10,127 nt of DNA, taken from the IMG/VR virus record IMGVR_UViG_2778261152_000007; one strand, written 5' to 3'. Positions 1 to 10,127 of the stretch are shown one piece after another (position 1 is the stretch's first letter; the number at the start of each line of letters is the position of its first letter). The notes under the pieces are model-generated. The model had not been told where the DNA came from and ran no database searches. It saw only the letters and a program-made list of their open reading frames with translations. The position numbers were made by a program, and so were the translations under genes. This DNA is from a virus (lineage: Duplodnaviria; Heunggongvirae; Uroviricota; Caudoviricetes).

Positions 1-99
1 CCCGACATAGCCCCACTGTTCGTCCATTTCCGCGCAGACGATGACGTCACTGCCCGGCTGTATGCGCGAGGTTACCGACTGCGGCCTGAGTTTTTTAAG
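1..99 (-). CDS. insB: IS1 InsB reading frame, N-terminal portion only (rest lies beyond window start); expressed as InsAB' by -1 frameshift
   Basis: Minus-strand translation in the -1 frame relative to insA gives [33 protein letters not shown], the start of IS1 InsB. It overlaps the insA 3' end at the A6C slippery site. Confidence 0.85.
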
Positions 100-347
100 T
101 GACGTAAAATCGTGTTGAGGCCAACGCCCATAATGCGGGCAGTTGCCCGGCATCCAACGCCATTCATGGCCATATCAATGATTTTCTGGTGCGTACCGGG
201 TTGAGAAGCGGTGTAAGTGAACTGCAGTTGCCATGTTTTACGGCAGTGAGAGCAGAGATAGCGCTGATGTCCGGCGGTGCTTTTGCCGTTACGCACCACC
301 CCGTCAGTAGCTGAACAGGAGGGACAGCTGATAGAAACAGAAGCCAC
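72..347 (-). CDS. insA: IS1 InsA (transposition repressor / N-terminal part of InsAB' transposase), GTG start
   Basis: 91-aa translation [22 protein letters not shown]...LKNSGRSR matches IS1 InsA as I remember it. GTG start at 347..345, TAA stop at 74..72. Confidence 0.95.
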
Positions 348-375
348 TGGAGCACCTCAAAAACACCATCATACA

Positions 376-1413
376 CTAAATCAGTAAGTTGGCAGCATCA
401 CCAAGCTGGGCTATATCCGTCGTACTTGCGTTACTTGATTTTCTGGAATCCCCGGAAGCATCTGGATAAATATAAATTTCCCTCACTTTCCGGTAATCAT
501 TCCCATCATACAGCCAGAAGCGTTCTTTAATGATGCGGATCATATCCGGCGTATCGTAGGCATTGATGATTTCAGTTACCGCACATGGAAGCCCCAAACG
601 CAGCACATGGACGATTCCCGCCATCTTTCCAACGTTAAAATCCATCCCAATATAAATCGGCTCCCCTGGCTGCTCCACTTCTTCGCAATTATTCAGTTTC
701 CGGTCAAACTGATGGTAAACAGTACCACTTGTCAGGTTAGTAAACTGTCCTCGAAGATAGGCTTTAATCAGCTCTGGAGGGTATGATTCAAGAAGCGAAG
801 GAATGTAATCTGCTGGCAGGTTCTTTTCATTATCGAAAGTAGATGCCTGCACCAGACCATACAGTGAGGCCAGCTCTGTTTTTTCACGCACGGCTTTAAC
901 AAACTGCTCGTAGACAAATTTGAATCCTTCCGGCGTGGTTGTAACGTCAATACCGTTGCGAAGTCCATCAATCTTATAACGCATACGTGCAATTATCTTG
1001 CGCCACGCCGTTCTGGCTTTTTCCTTCGGCAAAATGTCCAGTTCATCCACCAACGCATTACCAATTTTGAAACCGACGATCGTTTGTGGCTTCTCCATCG
1101 ATCTGCAGATAGTGGTTCCCCGATACTGGCGTCCGTAATAAAAGTGAACCTCTTTATTTCCCTCATTAATTTTTACGTTCAATCCCCAGTCAGCAGCAAC
1201 TTCTTCCACTGTAGGGTAAAAAATATCGCGAATTTGGGGATACGTTGGCGCAAAATATCCCTGATTTATACCTGGATGCTCCCAAATCCCCTTGCATATG
1301 CCGCCACACCCAACCCATATTTTGCCCGAGCCAAAACCAGCAATATAGGCTTTAAATTTATGGGGCATTGAAAGAAATCGCGCCTGAGGCACATTAAGCG
1401 TCGGAGAGATCAT
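376..1413 (-). pseudogene. Phage terminase large subunit, 3'-truncated by IS1 insertion; native part 403..1413, last 8 codons plus stop come from IS1
   Basis: Translation carries a Walker A-like AGFGSGKI, a Walker B-like ALVDELD and the first two acidic motifs of an RNase H-like nuclease domain (IYIGMDFN, IYIYPDASG). The reading frame runs straight into the IS1 terminus at 402/403 and ends GDAANLLI-stop inside IS1. Preferred start is the ATG at 1413 (AAGGAG 8 nt upstream); the track ORF begins at a GTG at 1422. Confidence 0.8.
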
Positions 1414-2488
1414 CTTCATCACTCCTTACTCTGGCATCAACCACATTAATATTGATCGCCACAGGCTGGGGATGTTCATTATCTTCCACCGTTTCGATCT
1501 CTTTGCGCAGCTTCTGGTTTTCCATTCTGCGCCGTTCAATTTCCAGTTCCTGTAGCCGTTTATCTGCACATAAAGCCCCGCCAGCAGAAAACAAACGCAA
1601 CAATTCACGCCGGGCGGCAGCCTTATCCTCCAGCAGGATCTCAACGCCGAATTTTCCGAATTTTGCCCCTGCATATAATTGCCGCGCATCCCCATCAAGC
1701 AGAGTGGTATCAGCCATATAAAGCTGTCCCGTTCCCTCACCGCAGCACTTCGGGCAGTCCGGATTGGGTATGGCGTTATCAACAAAGCCGAGGCCTCCAT
1801 ATTCCGGTTCGGGTTTGCCATCTCTGGAAGCCTGCGCCGCTGCCTTGTCGAATTCTGCTATATCGCGCCACTGGTAGAGATGATTCTCGCCCCAGCAATA
1901 ACGGCAGTTAACACGGCGAAATTGTGCAAGCTGATTGGGGTCGGCCAGGACAATAGCCATCAACTGACTCACTAGTAAATCCAGGTCTGCGGTATAGCGT
2001 TTCTGGTACTGATTGCGGAAGTAGCTGATAGCGCGAAAAACCCTGGCATTTCTAAGCATACGACTGGCGTTGCTGTTAGCTGTCGCACCTTGCCCCTCAT
2101 AACCGGCTAGTCGGTACGCCTCTGTCGGCTTTTTACCCTGAGCAACAAGCATCGCAAACTTAGCCTGCTGGTCAGAAATGCCGAATTCATCGGGACAGAA
2201 CGAAAATTCCTCCGCGTCGCCCTCATTCAGGCCCGCATCGAATACTGGCTTTTTTTCCTGAGATTTTTCGTTCCGCTTTTGTGCAGTCTGCGCAGATTTT
2301 TTCTGCGCACTTTTTTGCGCAGTTTTGCACATTTCTGTCTGCGCATTTTTCGGAGTTTTTTTGATGTAACGACGGGCTGTTGCGTAATTCAGTCCCCTTG
2401 CTTCACACCATGCCACCGGAGATATACCGGAGCGGGTGTATTCAGCAATATACTCCTGCTGCAACGCCCCCCAGTCCGGTCTGCTCAT
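1394..2488 (-). CDS. Phage terminase small subunit (Terminase_2-like core with extra N-terminal HTH, AQK low-complexity linker and C-terminal Cys4 zinc-ribbon-like region)
   Basis: Core motif GISDQQAKFAMLVAQGKKPTEAYRLAGYEGQGATANSNASRMLRNARV is typical of terminase small subunits. ATG at 2488 with AGGA upstream. The gene overlaps the terminase large start by about 20 nt. C-terminus has CRYC...CPKCC. Confidence 0.8.
   Translation of the reverse strand: MSRPDWGALQQEYIAEYTRSGISPVAWCEARGLNYATARRYIKKTPKNAQTEMCKTAQKSAQKKSAQTAQKRNEKSQEKKPVFDAGLNEGDAEEFSFCPDEFGISDQQAKFAMLVAQGKKPTEAYRLAGYEGQGATANSNASRMLRNARVFRAISYFRNQYQKRYTADLDLLVSQLMAIVLADPNQLAQFRRVNCRYCWGENHLYQWRDIAEFDKAAAQASRDGKPEPEYGGLGFVDNAIPNPDCPKCCGEGTGQLYMADTTLLDGDARQLYAGAKFGKFGVEILLEDKAAARRELLRLFSAGGALCADKRLQELEIERRRMENQKLRKEIETVEDNEHPQPVAININVVDARVRSDEDDLSDA
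2288..2345. repeat. Short imperfect tandem repeat (CTGCGCA followed by T-runs, 4 copies, ~15-nt period) inside terS
   Basis: CTGCGCA at 2288, 2303, (GCGCAG at 2317), 2339 on the plus strand. On the coding strand it encodes the KTAQKSAQKKSAQTAQK low-complexity stretch. Confidence 0.5.
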
Positions 2489-2491
2489 CAG

Positions 2492-2743
2492 TTAGTCCTG
2501 ATTTTTATCCACCCTGAGTAGTTCGCGCAGAGCAAAGGCATCCCCTTTTCTGGCAAGCTTAAACAATGCCGCTCGTAACTCGGCTTCACCTTTCGCTCTG
2601 CCCTTACGGATGGCCGCATAAAAATCTGTCATTGCTTCCCGATTTTCTTTCAGTCGGTTCAGATCAACATCCAGAACGTCAGCGATTTGTTGTGCAGTCA
2701 TCCGGCACGCTGCCAGAGACTCGACTTTCGAATACGGAATCAT
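2492..2743 (-). CDS. Small helix-turn-helix protein (83 aa), possibly packaging-associated DNA-binding protein
   Basis: ATG at 2743 preceded by GGGGGTGA (near-consensus Shine-Dalgarno). TAA stop at 2492 lies 3 nt before the terS ATG (coupled). HTH-like segment MTAQQIADVLDVDLNRLKE. Overlaps the upstream gene's 3' end by 65 nt. Confidence 0.6.
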   Translation of the reverse strand: MIPYSKVESLAACRMTAQQIADVLDVDLNRLKENREAMTDFYAAIRKGRAKGEAELRAALFKLARKGDAFALRELLRVDKNQD

Positions 2744-3611
2744 TTGTCACCCCCATTGATATGCAGGGTGTCTTCTTCCTGTATTTTTCGTGAAGGATTT
2801 TTACTGCAGCGTTGTTCCAGGTGACCTGATGGTGAATGCGTTTATGGCTGGCACCCATCAGTGAGATTTTTACGCACGACGGCGCATACATGACGGAGTA
2901 AAAACTTTTAACGTAGGTTCCGGAATCCAGATACAGCTCGGTCATTCCGCCGCTGTTTTTCTGCGTCTGTTTCTGCCCTAACTGGACAGCACCGATCGTC
3001 ATAAACAATTCACCACAGCGACCGAGATTCGTGTACGTATTCACATCCTCGTTAATGCGCCCCATGAATGAGAACGGTCGATCAACCGAACAGATAAAGC
3101 TGTTCATTGCCTTGCGTTTCACCCACGAAGCATGGCCGCCATTGTCACCAAGAAAATCCCCGCCCTGCGACATAGCGATGGAAAGAGCAGGTATTGATTC
3201 GTAGTACGCCAGCATTTCAGAAAGGATCGCATCCAGTTTCCTTATCGGAAAATAGGCCTGGTCATAGTTGCGATCCACCCGAAACTGGAACTCGTGATAA
3301 TCATCATCGAGCTGAATGAAGTATTTACACCCGACCAGTTTTGCCAGGTCGAAACAGGCATTACGGGCGTAAAAAATTGAGCGGCGGTCACAGAAATTAT
3401 CGGCTTCGTCAAAACGACTGGCGATATCGGCTTTGGAAAACACCAGCACCTGTTCACCAAATTCAGCCATGTACTGATTCCGTGTCTTATCTTCATCATC
3501 AACAACGATAAAAATTTTCCCGGTATAGCCAGCACGACGCAACGTCCGGTAAGTCAGAACTTTGTCCGGTCGCCCGTGAGTCAGAATAAAGGCGCAAAAA
3601 TCATCACGCAT
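2679..3611 (-). CDS. GT-A fold family-2-like glycosyltransferase (soluble, 310 aa from preferred start)
   Basis: Motifs KIFIVVDDEDK and FYARNACFDLAKLVGCKYFIQLDDDY match the GT2 hallmark (hhhhDDxS ... ARNxG ... hhhhDxDD). Preferred ATG at 3611 has GAGGAGGAGGA immediately upstream and overlaps the ParB-like stop by 8 nt. No C-terminal hydrophobic segment. Confidence 0.7.
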   Translation of the reverse strand: MRDDFCAFILTHGRPDKVLTYRTLRRAGYTGKIFIVVDDEDKTRNQYMAEFGEQVLVFSKADIASRFDEADNFCDRRSIFYARNACFDLAKLVGCKYFIQLDDDYHEFQFRVDRNYDQAYFPIRKLDAILSEMLAYYESIPALSIAMSQGGDFLGDNGGHASWVKRKAMNSFICSVDRPFSFMGRINEDVNTYTNLGRCGELFMTIGAVQLGQKQTQKNSGGMTELYLDSGTYVKSFYSVMYAPSCVKISLMGASHKRIHHQVTWNNAAVKILHEKYRKKTPCISMGVTNDSVFESRVSGSVPDDCTTNR

Positions 3612-4395
3612 ATTCCTCCTCCTCACCACCATGCATGATCTCCACCATGCGCTGCGTCATCCGGACAAATCCATTTTCAATAGCCTGCTGATAATCAATG
3701 ATCACCAGCGCCGACTCCTCGAAAAAACACTGAATTTCAGAGGGGGCGTGAGCGTAATAGTCCGCAATTCTGCTGAAATTAAACACCGTGTGACGTTCTG
3801 CCGCACACAGGAGGAATTTCTCAATATCAGGCTCAAGGGACGCCGAACGTATCCGGCTGATCAGCTCCTGAGTTTTCGTATCGTCGTACAGTTCACTGAT
3901 ATCCGGTTTACCGCCCGACGGCTCATAAACAGGCGTATCAATTTTCGTCGTATACGGCTCCTCCTCATTTCCTGTACCGGGCAAAACATCCGTCAACAGT
4001 TCATCAATTTCTGTCGGGATGAAGCCTGTCAGGGAGACATCAAAATCAGCATTGATTAGGTCCGACAGCTCCATCCGCAACAGATCTTCATCCCAGCCAG
4101 CATTCATCGGCAGGCGATTATCTGCCAGGCGGTACGCCTTTTTCTGCTCATCCGTCAGGCCAGACAGAACAATGACCGGAACAGAATCCATTTTGAGCAT
4201 TTCAGCCGCCATAACACGACCGTGACCCGCAATAATTTCGCCCTTTTCGTCAATCAGCACCGGATTAGTCCAGCCGAATTGCTTAATACTTTCTACCAGT
4301 TGTGCCACCTGCTCAGGGCTGTGCGTCCTGGCGTTGTGCGCATACGGTGACAATTCTTGTAATGGGCGATAGACTATCTTTAATTTCTCGCTCAT
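3604..4395 (-). CDS. ParB/sulfiredoxin-like nuclease-domain protein (263 aa) with uncharacterised acidic C-terminal domain
   Basis: N-terminal IVYRPLQELSPYAHNARTH...IIAGHGRVMAA...KKAYRLADNRL is the ParB N-domain signature; the linker FDVSLTGFIPTEIDELL follows. No methyltransferase motifs in the C-terminal ~130 aa. ATG at 4395, TGA at 3604. Confidence 0.85.
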   Translation of the reverse strand: MSEKLKIVYRPLQELSPYAHNARTHSPEQVAQLVESIKQFGWTNPVLIDEKGEIIAGHGRVMAAEMLKMDSVPVIVLSGLTDEQKKAYRLADNRLPMNAGWDEDLLRMELSDLINADFDVSLTGFIPTEIDELLTDVLPGTGNEEEPYTTKIDTPVYEPSGGKPDISELYDDTKTQELISRIRSASLEPDIEKFLLCAAERHTVFNFSRIADYYAHAPSEIQCFFEESALVIIDYQQAIENGFVRMTQRMVEIMHGGEEEEYA

Positions 4396-4410
4396 ACAGC
4401 CTTGCTTTAT

Positions 4411-4446
4411 GAATAAAACGCACCCCAGCAGCCAGTGCTACTGGGG
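4411..4446 (-). terminator. Putative Rho-independent terminator downstream of trkG
   Basis: Hairpin arms 4423..4432 (CCCCAGCAGC) and 4437..4446 (GCTACTGGGG) form a 10-bp GC-rich stem with one mismatch and a 4-nt loop. On the minus-strand RNA it is followed by UGCGUUUUAUUC. It lies about 90 nt after the trkG stop. Confidence 0.5.
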
Positions 4447-4532
4447 ACGGAGGGGTTGCTGGTAAAGTTAGGTATTGGATCAATGAGTGAGTCAACATAA
4501 TATTAAACTCACAATTATAAATCAGCCATATA

Positions 4533-5990
4533 TTAGGAGCGCCAAAAAAAACCTGAAAACAATATAATAACAGGATAAATTTCAAGGCGACCAAGAATCA
4601 TAGCTATGCACATTAAACATTTTGCAATGTCATTAAGCACTCCGAATGACGATGCAGTAGCCCCAAAACCTAATCCCATATTATTAATACATGCAGCCAC
4701 TGTTGCAAATGATGTAAGAAAATCATATCCCATACCATTTAACACCAGTATAAAAAACACCGTGAAGAGAGTATAAAGAAAAAAGAAACTCCATACAGAC
4801 CTCATTACACGATCTGTAACTATCTTCCCTCCTACATTTACACTCAACAACGCTCTGGGATGAGAAAGCTGATTTATCTCGTGTTTGCTTTGTTTGAAAA
4901 GTATAAGAAATCGAAGTGACTTAATTCCACCACAAGTTGAACCTATACATCCCCCAAAGAAACTTGACAACAGCAAAAACACTATCGTGTGCGTGGGCCA
5001 ACTTGCATAATCCTGCGTAGCTAAACCATTATCAGTGAGCATGGAGCTGGCAAGAAAAAACGAATGAATAAAACTTCCATGCAAGTCATACATACCTATA
5101 TGCCAGACCTGGAAAGAGGTAACAATGATCACCCCTAAGGCTATTAACAGAAAGAAACGAAGTTCAATATCTCTGATTAAAGGTTTTATCGTTTTCCTGC
5201 TAATAACAATATACCAAAGAGTGAAGTTGAAAGCCGATAGCAGGGAAAAAGAACCAGCCACCAGCTCAACCAAATAGTTATTAAAATATCCGATACTCTC
5301 GCTATGAGTTGAGAAACCACCAAGCGAAACTGTGGAAATCCCGTGACAAATAGCATCAAACAAAGGCATTCCTGCAAGTCTATAACAGACAATACAAGCA
5401 ATACCTAATAAAGAATAAGTTATCCACAGTGTCCGTGACGTATCGGCCAGGCGGGGAGTGAGTTTGTCATCCTTAAATGGCCCCGGCATTTCTGACTGAT
5501 AAAGCTTTGCACCACCAATACCCAATAATGGCAATACAGCAACCGCCAGAACAATAACTCCTAAACCACCTATAAAATTTAACTGTGACCGATAGTACAA
5601 ATATGCCCGAGGTAATGAACTAACATCATCAATTACAGTTGCTCCTGTTGTTGTTATTCCAGAAACCCCTTCAAACAGAGCATCAATGAACGTTAAATTA
5701 AGTTCTGAGTCAATCCATAAAGGGAATGCACTAATAACAGAAAACAAAATCCAAAACATTACAATTATAATAAACCCATCACGGGTACGTAATTGAATGC
5801 CAGATTTCTTAGTTGTATACCACGCTCCGCCACCAATGCAAAAAAATATAACGAAAGTTATAAAGAAAACGAACAGGCTTTTTTCTTTATAAAACAATGC
5901 TACAACCATTGGTGGCAACATTGAAAGACTATAGAGCCAAACCAGGAACCCACACATATGAGTAACAACTCTTACATGAGATGTATTCAT
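4533..5990 (-). CDS. trkG: TrkG-type potassium uptake protein (TrkH/TrkG family), prophage moron
   Basis: 485-aa multi-pass membrane protein starting MNTSHVRVVTHMCGFLVW, with the conserved GxTTTGATV and GGxGSTxGG selectivity-filter-like motifs. Matches my memory of Rac prophage TrkG of E. coli K-12. The track ORF begins at an upstream TTG (6008); the ATG at 5990 is preferred. The gene is visibly AT-rich compared with its neighbours. Confidence 0.9.
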   Translation of the reverse strand: MNTSHVRVVTHMCGFLVWLYSLSMLPPMVVALFYKEKSLFVFFITFVIFFCIGGGAWYTTKKSGIQLRTRDGFIIIVMFWILFSVISAFPLWIDSELNLTFIDALFEGVSGITTTGATVIDDVSSLPRAYLYYRSQLNFIGGLGVIVLAVAVLPLLGIGGAKLYQSEMPGPFKDDKLTPRLADTSRTLWITYSLLGIACIVCYRLAGMPLFDAICHGISTVSLGGFSTHSESIGYFNNYLVELVAGSFSLLSAFNFTLWYIVISRKTIKPLIRDIELRFFLLIALGVIIVTSFQVWHIGMYDLHGSFIHSFFLASSMLTDNGLATQDYASWPTHTIVFLLLSSFFGGCIGSTCGGIKSLRFLILFKQSKHEINQLSHPRALLSVNVGGKIVTDRVMRSVWSFFFLYTLFTVFFILVLNGMGYDFLTSFATVAACINNMGLGFGATASSFGVLNDIAKCLMCIAMILGRLEIYPVIILFSGFFWRS

Positions 5991-6127
5991 ATCTAAATAT
6001 TCTTTCAATTATAACCACCTTGCTGCAATATTATGATTATACTGTATAAAATTTAACTCCTCTTAGATCTTACTTCACTGTTCCTTATGAAACAATCATC
6101 AAAATGAATCATATTGTAGTTAAGATT

Positions 6128-6592
6128 TTACTTTAAACACTGCTCGGTTATGTATTGCTGAGCACCTTCAAGTTGGGCCTGCATCATTACCAGTCGTTCC
6201 CGGAGGGTGAAATAATCCCGTTCAGCGGTGTCTGCCAGTCGGGGGGAGGCTGCATTATCCACGCCGGAGGCGGTGGTGGCTTCACGCACTGACTGACAGA
6301 CTGCTTTGATGTGCAACCGACGACGACCAGCGGCAACATCATCACGCAGAACATCATTTTCAGCTTTCGCATCAGCTAACTCCTTCGTGTATTTTGCATC
6401 GAGCGCAGCAACATCACGCTGACGCATCTGCATGTCAGTAATTGCCGCGTTCGCCAGCTTCAGTTCTCTGGCATTTTTGTCGCGCTGTTCTTTGTAGGCG
6501 ATGGCGTTATCACGGTAATGATTAACACCCCATGACAGGCAGACGACGATGCAGATAACCAGAGCGGAGATAATCGCGGTTACTCTGTTCAT
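6128..6592 (-). CDS. Rz: Rz i-spanin (lysis)
   Basis: Translation from the ATG at 6592, [21 protein letters not shown]...[14 protein letters not shown], is close to lambda Rz. Start overlaps the endolysin stop (ATGA). The track ORF starts at an upstream GTG. Confidence 0.9.
6187..6372 (-). CDS. Rz1: Rz1 o-spanin lipoprotein, embedded in the +1 frame of Rz
   Basis: [53 protein letters not shown] has the lipobox VVGC and proline-rich region typical of lambda Rz1. Lies wholly inside Rz. Confidence 0.85.
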
Positions 6593-7086
6593 TGCTGACC
6601 CCACAAACAGATTTCACGCTCAATCTCACGACGAGTCATGAGACCTTTCCATTGCTTACCGCCAGCATATGTCCAGCGACGTAGCTGATCACATGCGCCT
6701 TTGATATCGCCCTGGTTTATTTTGCGAAGAAGCGTCGATGTTCTGAAATTGCCAGCACCCACGTTGTAAACGAATGAGTAAAGAGCGCCGCGCGTTGTTT
6801 CCGGTATATCGACTTTGATGTACGGGTTAATTTGTCTGGCGACCGTGGCAAGGTCTTTATTCAGGAGGGCTTTGCATTCTGCTTTGGTATACGTTTTACC
6901 GAGCATGATGTCTTTTCCTGTATGCCCGTGACATACAGTCCATACACCAACAATATCTTTGTATGGTATGTAGCTGACACCTTCCAGACCATCGTTACCA
7001 CTTGGGCCAGTGATTAACACTGATGCTATAGCAATTGCTCCGCCACCAATAGCAGCAGCAACGGCTTTTCGTAATGATGGAGGCAT
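6589..7086 (-). CDS. R: SAR endolysin (phage 21 R21-type lysozyme)
   Basis: 165-aa translation [44 protein letters not shown] has an N-terminal Gly/Ala-rich signal-anchor-release segment and a T4-lysozyme-like core. Near-identical to R21 as I recall it. Its ATG overlaps the holin stop (TAATG). Confidence 0.95.
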
Positions 7087-7301
7087 TATTCACCTCTCGC
7101 AGCCTTGCGCTTATCTTCTTTAATCTTGAAATAAAGGTTTGTCAGGTACGTCAGCAGGCCAAATACCAAGCTACCCAGCACACCTATTGCTGCCCACTGT
7201 GAGGGCGTGACTTTATCGAGCAGCTGTAAAAACCAGTAGCCAGCACTGCCTGCGGAGGTGCCGTAGGCAATGCCCGTTGTTAACTTATCCATGGATTTCA
7301 T
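7086..7301 (-). CDS. S: Pinholin (phage 21 S21-type class II holin) with dual-start motif
   Basis: 71-aa [71 protein letters not shown] is near-identical to S21 from memory. Met1 and Met4 give the antiholin/holin starts. Strong Shine-Dalgarno GGAGGTGAGG upstream. Confidence 0.95.
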
Positions 7302-7395
7302 AGCCTCACCTCCGCAAATAACGGATGGTGTACACGGTTCGGAACGAAGAGGAAAGGTATAGAAGTTACATTAGCGTAAGGCTTGAACATCTATT

Positions 7396-7427
7396 CAAAA
7401 AGAAAAACGCCGCGATTATTCTGGCGT
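7396..7427 (-). terminator. Weak candidate intrinsic terminator between the AraC-family gene and the holin
   Basis: On the minus strand, a short stem ACGCC/GGCGT (7407..7411 and 7423..7427) with an 11-nt loop is followed by UUUUUCUUUUU. The stem is short, so this is low confidence. Confidence 0.25.
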
Positions 7428-7488
7428 AGCTGAAAGCATCATACAATTATCAAATACGAAAATTACAAAATCATTAAAACGCATCACG

Positions 7489-8220
7489 TTACATCATGTC
7501 TTTTTCTAAAAAAAATCTTGATGAATATTGATGGGGAGGAACACCAAAATACCTTCTGAAAACACTTACAAAATATGACGTGTTTTCATAACCGCATATC
7601 TCAGCAACTTTTCCAACAGAATATAAATTGTAGCTTAATAACCTTTCCGCCATCACCATTCGCTCTTCAAGAATTAACTTACTAAATGATAAGCCTTCGT
7701 GCTTTAATTTTCTTTTTAACAGACTTTCACTCAGATACAGTCTTGAAGATATATCACAAAGTCTCCATGCTGCAGATATATCCGTGTGAATAATAGCCTT
7801 AACTTTACTTCCTAAACTATTAAGATATCCAAATAAAAAACTTTGCACTATTTTCTCTGAAGATAAGATAGCAAGACATGCAAGTGATATTTGATTTCTA
7901 ACAAAATCCACAGTTCTGCCATCACAATTCAAGCATGCAATCAAGTTCTTTAACAATGAAAAATCTTCACATTCCACCATCAAGTATGCCGGATAAAACC
8001 TTCTTACAGAAAAAGGTGAGAGTGTGTTGCTTTTAAAGAAATCATTAACTGTTTTTTCTTCAACATCTACGATCATTACATGATCTATATTTGATGAAAA
8101 AAAATCTTTTAAATTGTAATCAATGAGAACAGCACTTCCTTTTTTAAACAAAATATCTTCTTTACCAATTCGGACATCAAACGAGTTCAACACCAAAATG
8201 ATAGAACATATGTATAGCAT
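7489..8220 (-). CDS. AraC/XylS-family transcriptional regulator, AppY/YdeO/GadX-like
   Basis: C-terminal ESLLKRKLKHEGLSFSKLILEERMVMAERLL...VAEICGYENTSYFVSVFRRYFGVPPHQY is the AraC-type double-HTH signature. The N-terminus resembles AppY from memory. Preferred ATG at 8220 has AGGTGG 5 nt upstream; the track ORF starts at a GTG at 8229. The gene is very AT-rich (about 30% G+C in a line counted by hand). Confidence 0.85.
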   Translation of the reverse strand: MLYICSIILVLNSFDVRIGKEDILFKKGSAVLIDYNLKDFFSSNIDHVMIVDVEEKTVNDFFKSNTLSPFSVRRFYPAYLMVECEDFSLLKNLIACLNCDGRTVDFVRNQISLACLAILSSEKIVQSFLFGYLNSLGSKVKAIIHTDISAAWRLCDISSRLYLSESLLKRKLKHEGLSFSKLILEERMVMAERLLSYNLYSVGKVAEICGYENTSYFVSVFRRYFGVPPHQYSSRFFLEKDMM

Positions 8221-8570
8221 ATTATCCACCTGATATCATTGGGGTTACACCAGGTAAGTATAGGTGGAAAATCAATATTCGCCAGTTCAACAATAAGGAA
8301 AATTTCATTGCATACAAGTATAAAATTATGTATTTAACTCACAAAGACAAATTATTAAACCAATCTGTTATATTATATATAGCTGCGTGGAATCATAATA
8401 TTATATATTTTGACTGGCATGTTTACTAACTTTAAGTTGCATCTCAATTGTTTCTTCAGCGTAAACAGAGTTTTTATACAAACTGACACTCTGGGTATCA
8501 TAGTGTAGTTTTTACGATTGTAAATATCCTGCATGCAGGAACTCATCCTTTTGGATGATATCGCATACAA

Positions 8571-9530
8571 TTAATTTACCATCAGTCTTAGAGCCAGTTC
8601 GTCCGGATAGGGATCGAAGTAATTCTGTGTAAGCAAGTAATCATTAGGATACTCACCCAGATAATGCTTCAGCAGAGTCAACGGCGCAAGAAGAGGTAAT
8701 GTGCCAGAACGATAGTTAAGTATAACCTCGCTCAACTCTTTACGCTGGCGTGTACTTAAGTAGTTACTAAAATACCCCTGTATATGCATCAGCACATTCG
8801 TGTGATTTTTACGTGATGCAGGTTTTCTGAGAATCGCCATCAGCTTATCACGATACACCTCAAAGTATGATTCAAGGTCCGCCCACTCGTGTATTGCAGC
8901 CACAAATGGTCCCATATCTTTATAGCCTGCCTGACTATGCGCCAACAACTGAAGCTTATAACGACTATGAAAAGCTAATAACTCTCTTCTTGATAATTTC
9001 TCCTTGTAAAGGTGATTGAGCTCATGCAAAGCAAAAACTCTTTCAACAAAATTCTCACGAAGCACTGGATCATGTAATCGCCCATCCTCTTCAACCGGTA
9101 GCCAGGAAAACTTTTCCATCAAAGTGCTCGTAAATAGTCCCACTCCATCTTTACGACCTCGATTACCATTTTCATCATAGACACGCACGCGCTCCATGCC
9201 ACAGCTGGGAGATTTAGCACAAACCACAAACCCCGATACATCCTTTAATTTGTCCATATAAGAACGACTAAACTCTGTCATTCTCTCTGTCACATCCTCA
9301 TTCTGGTCGTGGCTGAAACACATCCGTATATTTCCTTGCGTCGAGCGCACAAGACGTAGAGCAGGACGCGGAACTGGCAGCCCTATAGCCATTTCCGGAC
9401 ATACTGGTCTGAATGTTACCCATTCCACTAATTTGTCCATTAAAAAGTCAGCTCTTTTGTGACCACCATCAAAACGAACAGCAGAACCGGCCAAACAACC
9501 GCTGATTCCAATCACAGGTTTTTTTATCAT
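8571..9530 (-). CDS. DUF523 (TudS-like, putative [4Fe-4S] thiouracil desulfidase) fused to DUF1722 (YbgA-like) protein
   Basis: 319-aa ORF. ATG at 9530 with AGGGGGAG upstream. N-terminal VIGISGCLAGSAVRFDGG, PVCPE and KSPSCG supply three conserved Cys as in TudS-type proteins. The C-terminal half resembles YbgA/DUF1722. Domain assignment is from memory. Confidence 0.8.
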   Translation of the reverse strand: MIKKPVIGISGCLAGSAVRFDGGHKRADFLMDKLVEWVTFRPVCPEMAIGLPVPRPALRLVRSTQGNIRMCFSHDQNEDVTERMTEFSRSYMDKLKDVSGFVVCAKSPSCGMERVRVYDENGNRGRKDGVGLFTSTLMEKFSWLPVEEDGRLHDPVLRENFVERVFALHELNHLYKEKLSRRELLAFHSRYKLQLLAHSQAGYKDMGPFVAAIHEWADLESYFEVYRDKLMAILRKPASRKNHTNVLMHIQGYFSNYLSTRQRKELSEVILNYRSGTLPLLAPLTLLKHYLGEYPNDYLLTQNYFDPYPDELALRLMVN

Positions 9531-9640
9531 ATTCTCCCCCTTGACTAATTCATTAACACATAAACTGTGTAGTGCACGGAATAAATTGCCTTTCTGGCGT
9601 CATCACTGACAATTTTTCTGTTATGGACTATTCCTAATAT

Positions 9641-9690
9641 AGTATGAAAGTTCTTTAAGTGATCGGTCGTAATCATCTATCTTTCATACT
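9641..9690. promoter_or_regulatory. Perfect 10-bp inverted repeat (AGTATGAAAG ... CTTTCATACT) with a 30-bp spacer in the divergent promoter region; candidate operator
   Basis: 9641..9650 is the exact reverse complement of 9681..9690. The right arm overlaps a CATACTTA element resembling an RpoS-type -10, about 30 nt upstream of the lipocalin ATG. Confidence 0.35.
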
Positions 9691-9722
9691 TACTCTCAAC
9701 TATCAAAAGTACAGGATTTATT

Positions 9723-10055
9723 ATGAAGTTATGGCCTGTGTTGACTGGCATTGCACTCTCTTTCACTCTTATAGCATGTAAGGCCCCGACACCACCTAAA
9801 GGTGTGCAGCCGATTACAAATTTTGACGCCAACCGCTACCTCGGAAAATGGTATGAAATAGCTCGCCTCGAGAACCGGTTCGAACGTGGTCTGGAACAGG
9901 TCAGCGCTACTTATGGAAAACGGAACGACGGAGGGATTCGTGTACTTAACCGTGGATACGATCCAACGAAAAATAAATGGAGCGAGAGCGAAGGTAAAGC
10001 ATACTTTACTGGAGATACTAAAACTGCAGCATTGAAGGTTTCGTTTTTTGGGTAA
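9723..10055 (+). pseudogene. blc: Blc-like outer-membrane lipocalin lipoprotein, truncated after codon 110 by IS1 (stop codon supplied by the IS1 terminus)
   Basis: MKLWPVLTGIALSFTLIACKAPTPPKG...NFDANRYLGKWYEIARLENRFERGL...SEGKAYFTGDTKTAALKVSFFG aligns with the first ~110 residues of E. coli Blc (lipobox LIAC). The frame ends at TAA 10053..10055, inside the IS1 end that starts at 10051. Full-length lipocalins are about 170-180 aa. Confidence 0.85.
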
Positions 10056-10127
10056 TGACTCCAACTTATTGATAGTGTTTTATGTTCAGATAATGCCCGA
10101 TGACTTTGTCATGCAGCTCCACCGATT
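10051..10127 (-). mobile_element. IS1: IS1 insertion sequence, second copy, IRR terminus (continues beyond window end)
   Basis: 10051..10127 reads GGTAATGACTCCAACTTATTGATAGTGTTTTATGTTCAGATAATGCCCGATGACTTTGTCATGCAGCTCCACCGATT, the reverse complement of the IS1 right end. It has the same orientation as the copy at 1..402. Confidence 0.95.

Follow-up and report, generated by a model that had tools for sequence, protein, structure and literature searches.

Two partial copies of the insertion sequence IS1, in direct orientation, bracket about 9.65 kb of prophage DNA in the 10,127-bp stretch analysed here (the window), and the locus raises the question of whether the bracketed DNA is a mobile unit of the Tn9 type or resident prophage DNA that IS1 interrupted in separate events. 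At a probability of about 0.8, we favour the second answer, in which a contig from a short-read E. coli draft genome would carry a segment of a resident defective lambdoid prophage (located beside ybhC in IS1-free relatives) and its two IS1 ends would be the products of two unrelated events. The right end would be an inherited insertion in the prophage lipocalin gene, forming one arm of an IS1-corA-ysgD-IS1 composite seen in relatives; the left end would come from IS1A entering or rearranging the gene for the terminase large subunit in this strain alone; and the 9.65 kb between them would not have moved, having kept its native order and context. The finding is an ordinary one.

An IS1-bracketed draft contig

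The window is the reverse complement of bases 39-10165 of NKEV01000081.1, with 0 mismatches, a draft contig of 10,165 bp in assembly GCA_002462895.1, and its right end is the end of that contig; a literature search for the WGS accession NKEV00000000 returned no match. Given this identity, the window amounts to nearly the entire length of a short-read E. coli contig and both IS1 ends are therefore assembly breaks in a repeat: a multi-copy sequence stopped the assembler, which left each end of the contig within IS1.

The left arm (1..402, minus strand) corresponds to IS1 nt 1-402, as identified from its IRL and by BLAST to complete IS1 copies (99.25% identity, 3 mismatches). Inspection of the sequence placed the IRL at 380-402, as the reverse complement of GGTGATGCTGCCAACTTACTGAT, with the IS1 terminus at 402. 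This arm retains an intact insA (72-347, minus strand), which encodes a 91-aa InsA with Zn_ribbon_InsA and HTH_Tnp_IS1 domains, while the insB' region falls outside the window. It belongs to the common IS1A isoform, with many genomes carrying IS1A copies of 100% identity, and 3 positions set it apart from the IS1A copies that flank corA in the composite of strain ET490; the left copy is cut by the window end, with 38 nt more in the parent contig. The right arm (10051..10127, minus strand) is the IRR end of IS1 (nt 692-768), exactly 77 nt long, 100% identical by BLAST to complete IS1 copies, and ends where the parent contig ends; its IRR, read inward as GGTAATGACTCCAACTTATTGAT, was found by inspection at 10051-10073.

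Both arms are in minus orientation and the copies are direct, so that the preliminary description was right in placing IS1 ends at 402 and 10051 in this arrangement. Its remark that a circular wrap of one copy does not account for the two ends, about 290 bp of IS1 being missing, was also borne out, as the arms cover separate parts of the element, about 289 nt are absent and both copies are incomplete in the window. A repeat scan of the window recovered no repeated IS1 sequence, only short chance matches.

How much the bracketing itself can tell depends on how common IS1 is. Among the complete genomes that share the right junction, IS1-matched places number at least 40 in each of 2EC1, ET490, ET670 and ET979, 18 in NCTC9080, and 5-6 in YZB902 and HE302. 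By our own estimate, roughly 40 IS1 copies in 4.6 Mb would presumably yield about 3 neighbouring pairs less than 10 kb apart per genome, half of them direct, and on this estimate direct IS1 bracketing is not beyond chance expectation. A caution follows for IS-rich short-read assemblies, where any contig between two IS copies looks bracketed (half of them directly), and the bracketed appearance of a contig alone is uninformative on unit mobility.

The segment and its counterparts in complete chromosomes

The DNA between the arms reads as the late region of a lambdoid prophage with accessory genes. From the left junction inward, all on the minus strand, a terminase small subunit matching the Pfam family Terminase_2 (1394..2488) is followed by a small ORF similar to the terminase small-subunit family phrog_309 (2492..2743), a homologue of TAGT-family glycosyltransferases (PF20691; phrog_842; 2679..3632), a ynaK-like protein with a ParB_N domain (3604..4395), and the potassium transporter gene trkG as a prophage moron (4533..6008). 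Next come a lysis cassette (6128..7301; holin at 7086-7301, lysozyme at 6589-7086, Rz at 6128-6604 and an embedded Rz1 at 6187-6372), an AraC-family regulator (7489..8229) that is intact in the window but carries a frameshift, or has given way to IS1B, in some relatives, and a YbgA-like protein combining DUF523/2-thiouracil desulfurase and DUF1722 (8571..9530). Pfam matches in the segment were to holin, lysozyme, Rz, Rz1, Terminase_2 and Terminase_6N. The order is that of a lambdoid late region, holin-endolysin-Rz/Rz1 and then the small and large terminase subunits, with Q upstream in relatives. PADLOC returned no defence-system match for the accessory genes, except that the ParB_N-type protein matched the N-terminal part of a methyltransferase profile, and domain annotation found no replication functions among the genes of the segment. 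The window covers the part of a defective lambdoid prophage in which packaging, moron and lysis genes lie and, with its terminase inactivated and its lipocalin moron disrupted, it documents the routine decay of such a prophage through IS1.

The origin of this DNA was addressed by comparison with complete chromosomes. Positions 403-10050 are collinear over their full length, at 97.9-99.7% identity, with at least 17 complete E. coli chromosomes, and 29 complete chromosomes cover at least 80% of the segment; strain ET151 aligns in a single piece at 99.7%. In the two genomes that we inspected, ET151 and MB52, the segment lies within a lambdoid prophage next to int-xis-ybhC and both end genes are intact, so that the uninterrupted terminase and lipocalin genes that the preliminary description had proposed to look for in related genomes do exist. 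There the segment runs seamlessly on the left into the 3' end of a full 433-aa terminase gene, the portal gene and head genes (also tail genes in MB52), and on the right into the 3' end of a 174-aa lipocalin gene, Q, ylcG and rusA. The trkG-type left part and the IS1-bearing right part were never combined in one complete genome, and the source prophage is therefore a mosaic.

Two junctions of different age and distribution

The right junction cuts the lipocalin gene (9723..10055, plus strand) at codon 110 of 174, and IS1 supplies the stop (TAA inside GGTAATG), just as first described. Seven complete genomes (2EC1, ET490, ET670, ET979, NCTC9080, YZB902 and HE302) share this junction with 100% identity over 428 nt, and the truncated 110-aa product is recorded in 393 collection blocks. 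In six of the seven (all except ET670), IS1 is followed by corA-ysgD and then by a second IS1 copy in inverted orientation, the whole composite measuring 3.2 kb, and in the four unrearranged genomes (2EC1, NCTC9080, YZB902 and HE302) the 3' half of the lipocalin gene lies directly beyond it. The 8 bp next to the right arm, GTTTTTTG (10043..10050), are one copy of a target duplication that stands on both sides of the whole IS1-corA-IS1 block in 2EC1, and the same 8 bp are present once in ET151. Judged from these sequence features, the right junction is an insertion and not a deletion. GTTTTTTGGCCCCTTC belongs to the lipocalin 3' half beyond the insertion and GAAAATAAAATAGAGAGAG... to the region downstream of corA.

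The right part of the window also points to the lineage from which this insertion came. Positions 7377-10127 show 1 mismatch in 2,751 nt against both ET490 and ET670, and positions 7377-10050 show 10 differences against ET151. Because the right 2.7 kb differs from that lineage by one SNP, identity by descent is the most likely explanation of the shared junction, and by comparison with these relatives the source genome probably continues beyond the window as IS1-corA-IS1-lipocalin 3'-Q.

The left junction has a far narrower distribution. Here the gene for the terminase large subunit (Terminase_6N; 376..1413, minus strand) is reduced to 345 aa and fused to 8 IS1 codons, in keeping with the preliminary description of a frame continuing 8 codons into IS1. 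The ORF ends ...TTDIAQL|GDAANLLI*, where the intact 433-aa protein reads ...TTDIAQLKQAGF..., so that 8 IS1-derived codons are gained and 96 codons are missing. The 9 bp abutting the IRL (403..411) are AAGCTGGGC, or GCCCAGCTT as the reverse complement, which encodes the terminase codons A-Q-L and would be the target-site duplication predicted for a simple insertion. This junction is known from only two contigs, NKEV01000081.1 and one listed similar place, and had no match among 5,426 complete E. coli genomes; nor did the reciprocal junction, built artificially from terminase 3' end + GCCCAGCTT + IS1 IRR, find a single-piece match in the complete genomes. The left junction is an IS1A event private to the strain.

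Whether this event was a simple insertion or left the endpoint of an IS1-associated deletion stands at roughly even odds. An IS1-mediated adjacent deletion or rearrangement, to which we give slightly less than an even chance, would have removed the 3' end of the terminase gene, probably together with head and tail genes, and would have placed unrelated DNA beyond the left IS1. The same kinds of IS1 event are seen at this region in relatives (ET670, YZB902 and HE302), and the Walker A motif of the truncated terminase reads GKI in place of GKT, a change consistent with a gene free of selection. Against this, simple insertion of IS1 in the terminase gene also occurs, as in ECSC054, where an independent IS1 lies about 370 bp off and the gene is continuous over the window's insertion site as far as that IS1. 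A search with the missing 96-aa C-terminus in a collection of 5.8 billion proteins traced no fragment to GCA_002462895.1, the source assembly; the fragments traced to other assemblies came from a 457-bp repeat contig (P0001) and from a ynaK::terminase fusion in Rac-like prophages (P0002). The far side of the left IS1, like the outer end of the right one, lies beyond both window and contig. The earlier suggestion that such junctions typically arise by deletion does not hold for the right one, given the 8-bp duplication in 2EC1 and the lipocalin 3' half beyond IS1 in four genomes, and on the left the two origins are about equally likely.

Relatives illustrate how active IS1 has been at this locus. 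ET490 and ET979 have undergone an inversion at the IS1 copies of the prophage locus; in ET670 a deletion has brought IS1 against the portal gene, and corA, the terminase and the lysis genes are lost; in YZB902 and HE302 about 0.86 kb, including most of the AraC-family gene, has been replaced by IS1B; and further IS1, IS3, IS5 and IS66 copies reside in the same prophage. Because the IS1 copies of relatives drive rearrangements at this locus, the source genome could be rearranged there too. As in the window, the ordinary IS1 insertions, deletions and inversions that defective lambdoid E. coli prophages accumulate leave junctions precisely at IS1 termini inside prophage genes, and no feature distinguishes the present case from that general pattern.

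Mobile-unit readings and related modules

The preliminary description had likened the arrangement to a Tn9-type composite; on such a reading, two direct IS1 copies and the 9.65 kb between them would have transposed, or be poised to transpose, as a unit through the outer IS1 ends. The direct IS1 ends around the segment do recall Tn9 (IS1-cat-IS1), in which two direct copies likewise enclose non-IS DNA, and IS1 composites exist next door, the identical IS1|corA junction occurring in 148 of 5,426 complete E. coli genomes, in both chromosomal and plasmid locations. Tn9, however, has foreign cargo, many contexts and a target duplication at its outer ends, whereas the window holds native prophage DNA in native order and has no second context. 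The segment is not foreign to its flanking DNA in ET151 and MB52 and is collinear with IS1-free relatives, where the genes truncated at its ends continue outside; the right junction is common to genomes in which the left IS1 is missing and the packaging module is a different one; and the left junction is limited to one strain, with no second genomic context for the IS-cargo-IS unit known from the complete genomes searched for it. The two junctions differ in age and distribution, which is a further departure from Tn9. A unit of 11 kb would also be a poor substrate, since the transposition frequency of IS1-flanked transposons reportedly falls steeply with size (Chandler, Clerget and Galas, 1982). 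We regard the composite as extremely improbable. Comparison with related genomes gave, at the right junction, an insertion with its own duplication (2EC1) and the other half of the lipocalin gene on the far side, an arrangement that the preliminary description had itself set against unit mobility.

No more credible is a circular or amplified molecule that IS1-IS1 recombination would have excised, made of the segment and one IS1. The contig runs into IS1 at both ends in one and the same orientation, as a one-IS1 circle would in an assembly graph. The right junction, however, is the chromosomal one of seven closed genomes, leading through IS1 to corA (or to the phage portal gene in ET670), and the segment has no replication functions of its own. 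The more general point made earlier, that direct IS1 repeats might in principle delete or amplify the segment by homologous recombination, is correct for any DNA between direct IS copies; we saw no sign that this has occurred. A cointegrate origin and intramolecular replicative transposition from the lipocalin IS1 were also rejected, for the right junction is an ancestral one on the chromosome, relative to which the segment is not inverted. Native prophage DNA with two unrelated IS1 events remains our preferred reading.

The composite found next door in relatives is a more interesting by-product than the window itself, as it duplicates a housekeeping Mg2+/Co2+ transporter gene. Its left outer junction is the right IS1 junction of the window, base for base, in six genomes, whereas only 77 nt of that IS1 are within the window, where neither corA nor the second IS1 is seen. 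With its inverted IS1 copies, the architecture is like that of Tn1681 (an IS1-flanked heat-stable enterotoxin gene), and we found no description of an IS1-corA-IS1 composite in the searchable literature.

The terminase site drew attention for another reason. The P0002 fusion, rare and found in Rac-like prophages of other strains, reads ...CTGGTA|GCCCAGCTTAAG..., and its breakpoint coincides, within a 3-bp microhomology, with the IS1 site of the window and its predicted duplication GCCCAGCTT (403-411). The window retains the 5' part of the terminase gene up to those 9 bp and P0002 the 3' part from them, as one would expect if the two were the opposite sides of a single IS1 insertion; the site falls after the Terminase_6N match, and the fusion retains only the Terminase_6C part. 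The coincidence is probably due to chance, because a pattern covering the IRL only had no match in the fusion-bearing contigs L021-L023, complete genomes lack the junction of the fusion, and the local similarity between the two sites, TAGnnnnnnTTAAGCA, offers a possible explanation of the fusion by microhomology. That the site is a recurrent break or recombination hotspot, or that an ancestral IS1 seeded the fusion and was then lost, is very unlikely in our estimation, as is, separately, an excised or amplified IS1 circle.

The accessory and lysis modules themselves have familiar counterparts in E. coli K-12. As in the trkG-ynaK region of Rac, trkG adjoins a ParB_N (ynaK-like) gene, and the S/R/Rz/Rz1 genes resemble the DLP12-type lysis cassette (essD, rrrD, rzpD/rzoD), with DLP12 gene names annotated in relatives. 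In contrast to Rac and DLP12, the modules of the window belong to a prophage beside ybhC and are accompanied by a full-length ParB_N gene, a TAGT glycosyltransferase and T4-type (Terminase_6N) packaging.

IS1 arms and contig ends

Window positions 1-402 are the reverse complement of IS1 nucleotides 1-402, with the IRL terminus (…TCAGTAAGTTGGCAGCATCACC) ending at position 402, and the final 77 nt (10051-10127) begin with GGTAATGACTCCAACTTATTGAT…, the IRR terminus in the inward direction. By BLAST, these arms were 99.25% and 100% identical, respectively, to complete IS1 copies of related genomes, and the left arm carries an intact InsA gene (72-347, minus strand; 91 aa). Both arms are in minus orientation, and hence the two IS1 copies are direct; neither is complete, and a repeat scan of the window found no sequence common to the two. 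Comparison with an intact 433-aa homologue (…TTDIAQLKQAGF…) showed that the truncated terminase ORF (…TTDIAQL, then GDAANLLI) ends in 8 IS1 codons and a stop, with 96 codons missing, and the lipocalin ORF has 110 codons and a TAA stop within the IS1 terminus (intact lipocalin, 174 aa). At both junctions, the break falls precisely at the IS1 terminus, inside a gene, and the preliminary description of the IS1 ends, their orientation, and the gene truncations proved accurate in each detail checked (IRL/IRR reads, BLAST, and ORFs). At terminase codon 33 (window 1319), the Walker A motif reads GFGSGKI rather than the GFGSGKT of ET151 (A in the window, G in ET151), a change that is probably inactivating, within a gene already cut by IS1.

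An exact-protein look-up placed the terminase::IS1 fusion product in two contigs only, one of which is NKEV01000081.1 (GCA_002462895.1, 10,165 bp). The window matched the reverse complement of this contig (bases 39-10165) with 0 mismatches, and its right end is the contig end. The window is thus essentially a whole short-read contig ending in IS1 on both sides. The 77 nt of the right arm probably represent a typical assembler k-mer length, and the IS1 bracketing is partly a by-product of assemblers breaking at repeats.

Native context and mosaic origin of the cargo

The cargo (403-10050) comprises, on the minus strand, the truncated terminase large subunit gene at its left end, followed by genes for the terminase small subunit, a small ORF, a TAGT-family glycosyltransferase homologue, a ParB_N protein, trkG, Rz/Rz1, lysozyme and holin, an AraC-family regulator, and a YbgA-like protein, with the truncated lipocalin gene at its right end on the plus strand. 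Full-length alignments (97.9-99.7% identity) were obtained with at least 17 complete chromosomes of E. coli; coverage reached 80% or more in 29. In ET151 and MB52, it lies within a lambdoid prophage whose int-xis end adjoins ybhC, with no IS1 at either junction: on the left, the terminase gene runs on and is followed by portal and head genes (and tail genes in MB52), and on the right, lipocalin also runs on, with Q, ylcG, and rusA beyond it. Because the cargo is collinear with its relatives and its end genes are continuous in these two strains, sequence comparison indicates that it was not brought in as a unit. The proposal of a Tn9-type unit was therefore not borne out, as the cargo is in native order and, in the two relatives inspected, in native context.

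Between the small-subunit gene terS and trkG, a gene of the TET-associated glycosyltransferase family overlaps a full-length ParB_N gene (2679-4395, minus strand). The former matched PF20691 (E=8e-35) and phrog_842, “beta-glucosyl-HMC-alpha-glucosyltransferase” (E=1e-103), and the window ORFs scanned included no TET/JBP partner. RefSeq labels it “GREB1-related protein” or “hypothetical protein,” and its only annotation for the ParB_N gene is a partial ynaK pseudogene.

The left 5.8 kb of the window is ET151-like (5 SNPs). Across the 2,751 nt of 7377-10127, a single SNP separates the window from ET490 and ET670, and 7377-10050 has 10 differences from ET151. Nearly half of the differences from ET151 (13/28) cluster in the lysozyme-holin region (6864-7272), which is only 96.9% identical to ET490. 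The lysis cassette thus represents a third allele, and at least three sources have contributed to this mosaic prophage.

Origins of the two junctions

Seven complete genomes contain the window's final 428 nt as one unbroken match at 100% identity, and the 110-aa truncated lipocalin product is recorded in the assembly collection in 393 blocks. In 2EC1, NCTC9080, YZB902, and HE302, this IS1 leads into corA and ysgD, then a truncated ORF and another IS1 in inverted orientation, directly past which lie the lipocalin 3' half and then Q. This 3.2-kb block in the prophage lipocalin gene, IS1(-)-corA-ysgD-truncated ORF-IS1(+), spans 14352-17594 of the 2EC1 locus (L002), where each outer end bears a copy of GTTTTTTG; since the uninterrupted ET151 allele has it once, an 8-bp target duplication accompanied insertion of the block as a composite. 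The near-identity of the right side to ET490 and ET670 (one SNP) makes it most likely that the right junction is identical by descent with this insertion, so that in the source genome the right IS1 would go on into corA, IS1, and the lipocalin 3' half. The right junction reflects an inherited insertion that relatives share, with the other lipocalin half kept beyond IS1 in them. It thus does not have the deletion origin first proposed; the retained half is an outcome that the preliminary description itself set against both deletion and unit mobility.

The composite, which provides an additional copy of the housekeeping gene corA, is also present at loci L003, L015, L016, L018, L019, L024, and L025. 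Of 5,426 complete E. coli genomes, 148 contain the identical IS1-corA junction; it occupies many different chromosomal sites and also occurs on several large plasmids, and the strain D1 copy has flanks without a match. The searchable literature yielded no description of this composite.

The left junction is strain-specific: neither it nor its predicted reciprocal is in any complete genome, and matches to the missing terminase C-terminus traced to other assemblies only. The left arm belongs to a common IS1A isoform, with 100% matches in many genomes, and has three mismatches to the IS1A copies in the ET490 composite. We infer that the two IS1 events were independent. At this locus, relatives show IS1 insertion as well as IS1-associated deletion. 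ECSC054 has an IS1 in the terminase gene about 370 bp from the window's insertion site, across which the gene is uninterrupted; ET670, YZB902, and HE302 carry IS1-associated deletions. Simple insertion and a deletion endpoint have about even odds at the left junction.

A rare fusion of ynaK to the terminase C-terminus (P0002, 133 aa) occurs in Rac-like prophages, with its joint running from …CTGGTA to GCCCAGCTTAAG… (contig L021, 6095-6115). Its terminase part starts at the same 8-9 bp that adjoin IS1 in the window (403-411, GCCCAGCTT), and the IS1 insertion point equals the fusion breakpoint within a 3-bp microhomology. The breakpoint lies past the Terminase_6N match, and the fusion keeps the Terminase_6C part only. 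The fusion junction is absent from complete genomes, and a pattern matching IRL only found no IS1 IRL on fusion-bearing contigs. As TAGnnnnnnTTAAGCA is common to the ynaK and terminase sites, microhomology there could have given rise to the fusion. The coincidence with the IS1 site, about 4 in 1,300 positions and noticed after the fact, is most likely due to chance. A 457-bp repeat contig (L020) starts 4 nt into the 9 bp of 403-411.

IS1 recombination in the window and its relatives

The 9.65 kb between direct IS1 copies could be deleted or amplified by recombination and, in principle, mobilised by the outer IS1 ends, a potential shared by any DNA between direct IS copies; no product of either process was found for this segment. 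In four relatives, a query including the IS1 arm matched at least 40 places, and with about 40 IS1 copies we estimate that a few pairs less than 10 kb apart would be expected by chance per genome. The IS1-bracketed segment is real but ordinary.

The same prophage has undergone several IS1-driven rearrangements in relatives. ET490 and ET979 carry the corA block plus a third IS1, with the AraC-YbgA-lipocalin 5' segment inverted; a deletion in ET670 removed corA through terminase, such that IS1 now adjoins the portal gene; and in YZB902 and HE302, IS1B has taken the place of about 0.86 kb and, with it, most of the AraC-family gene.
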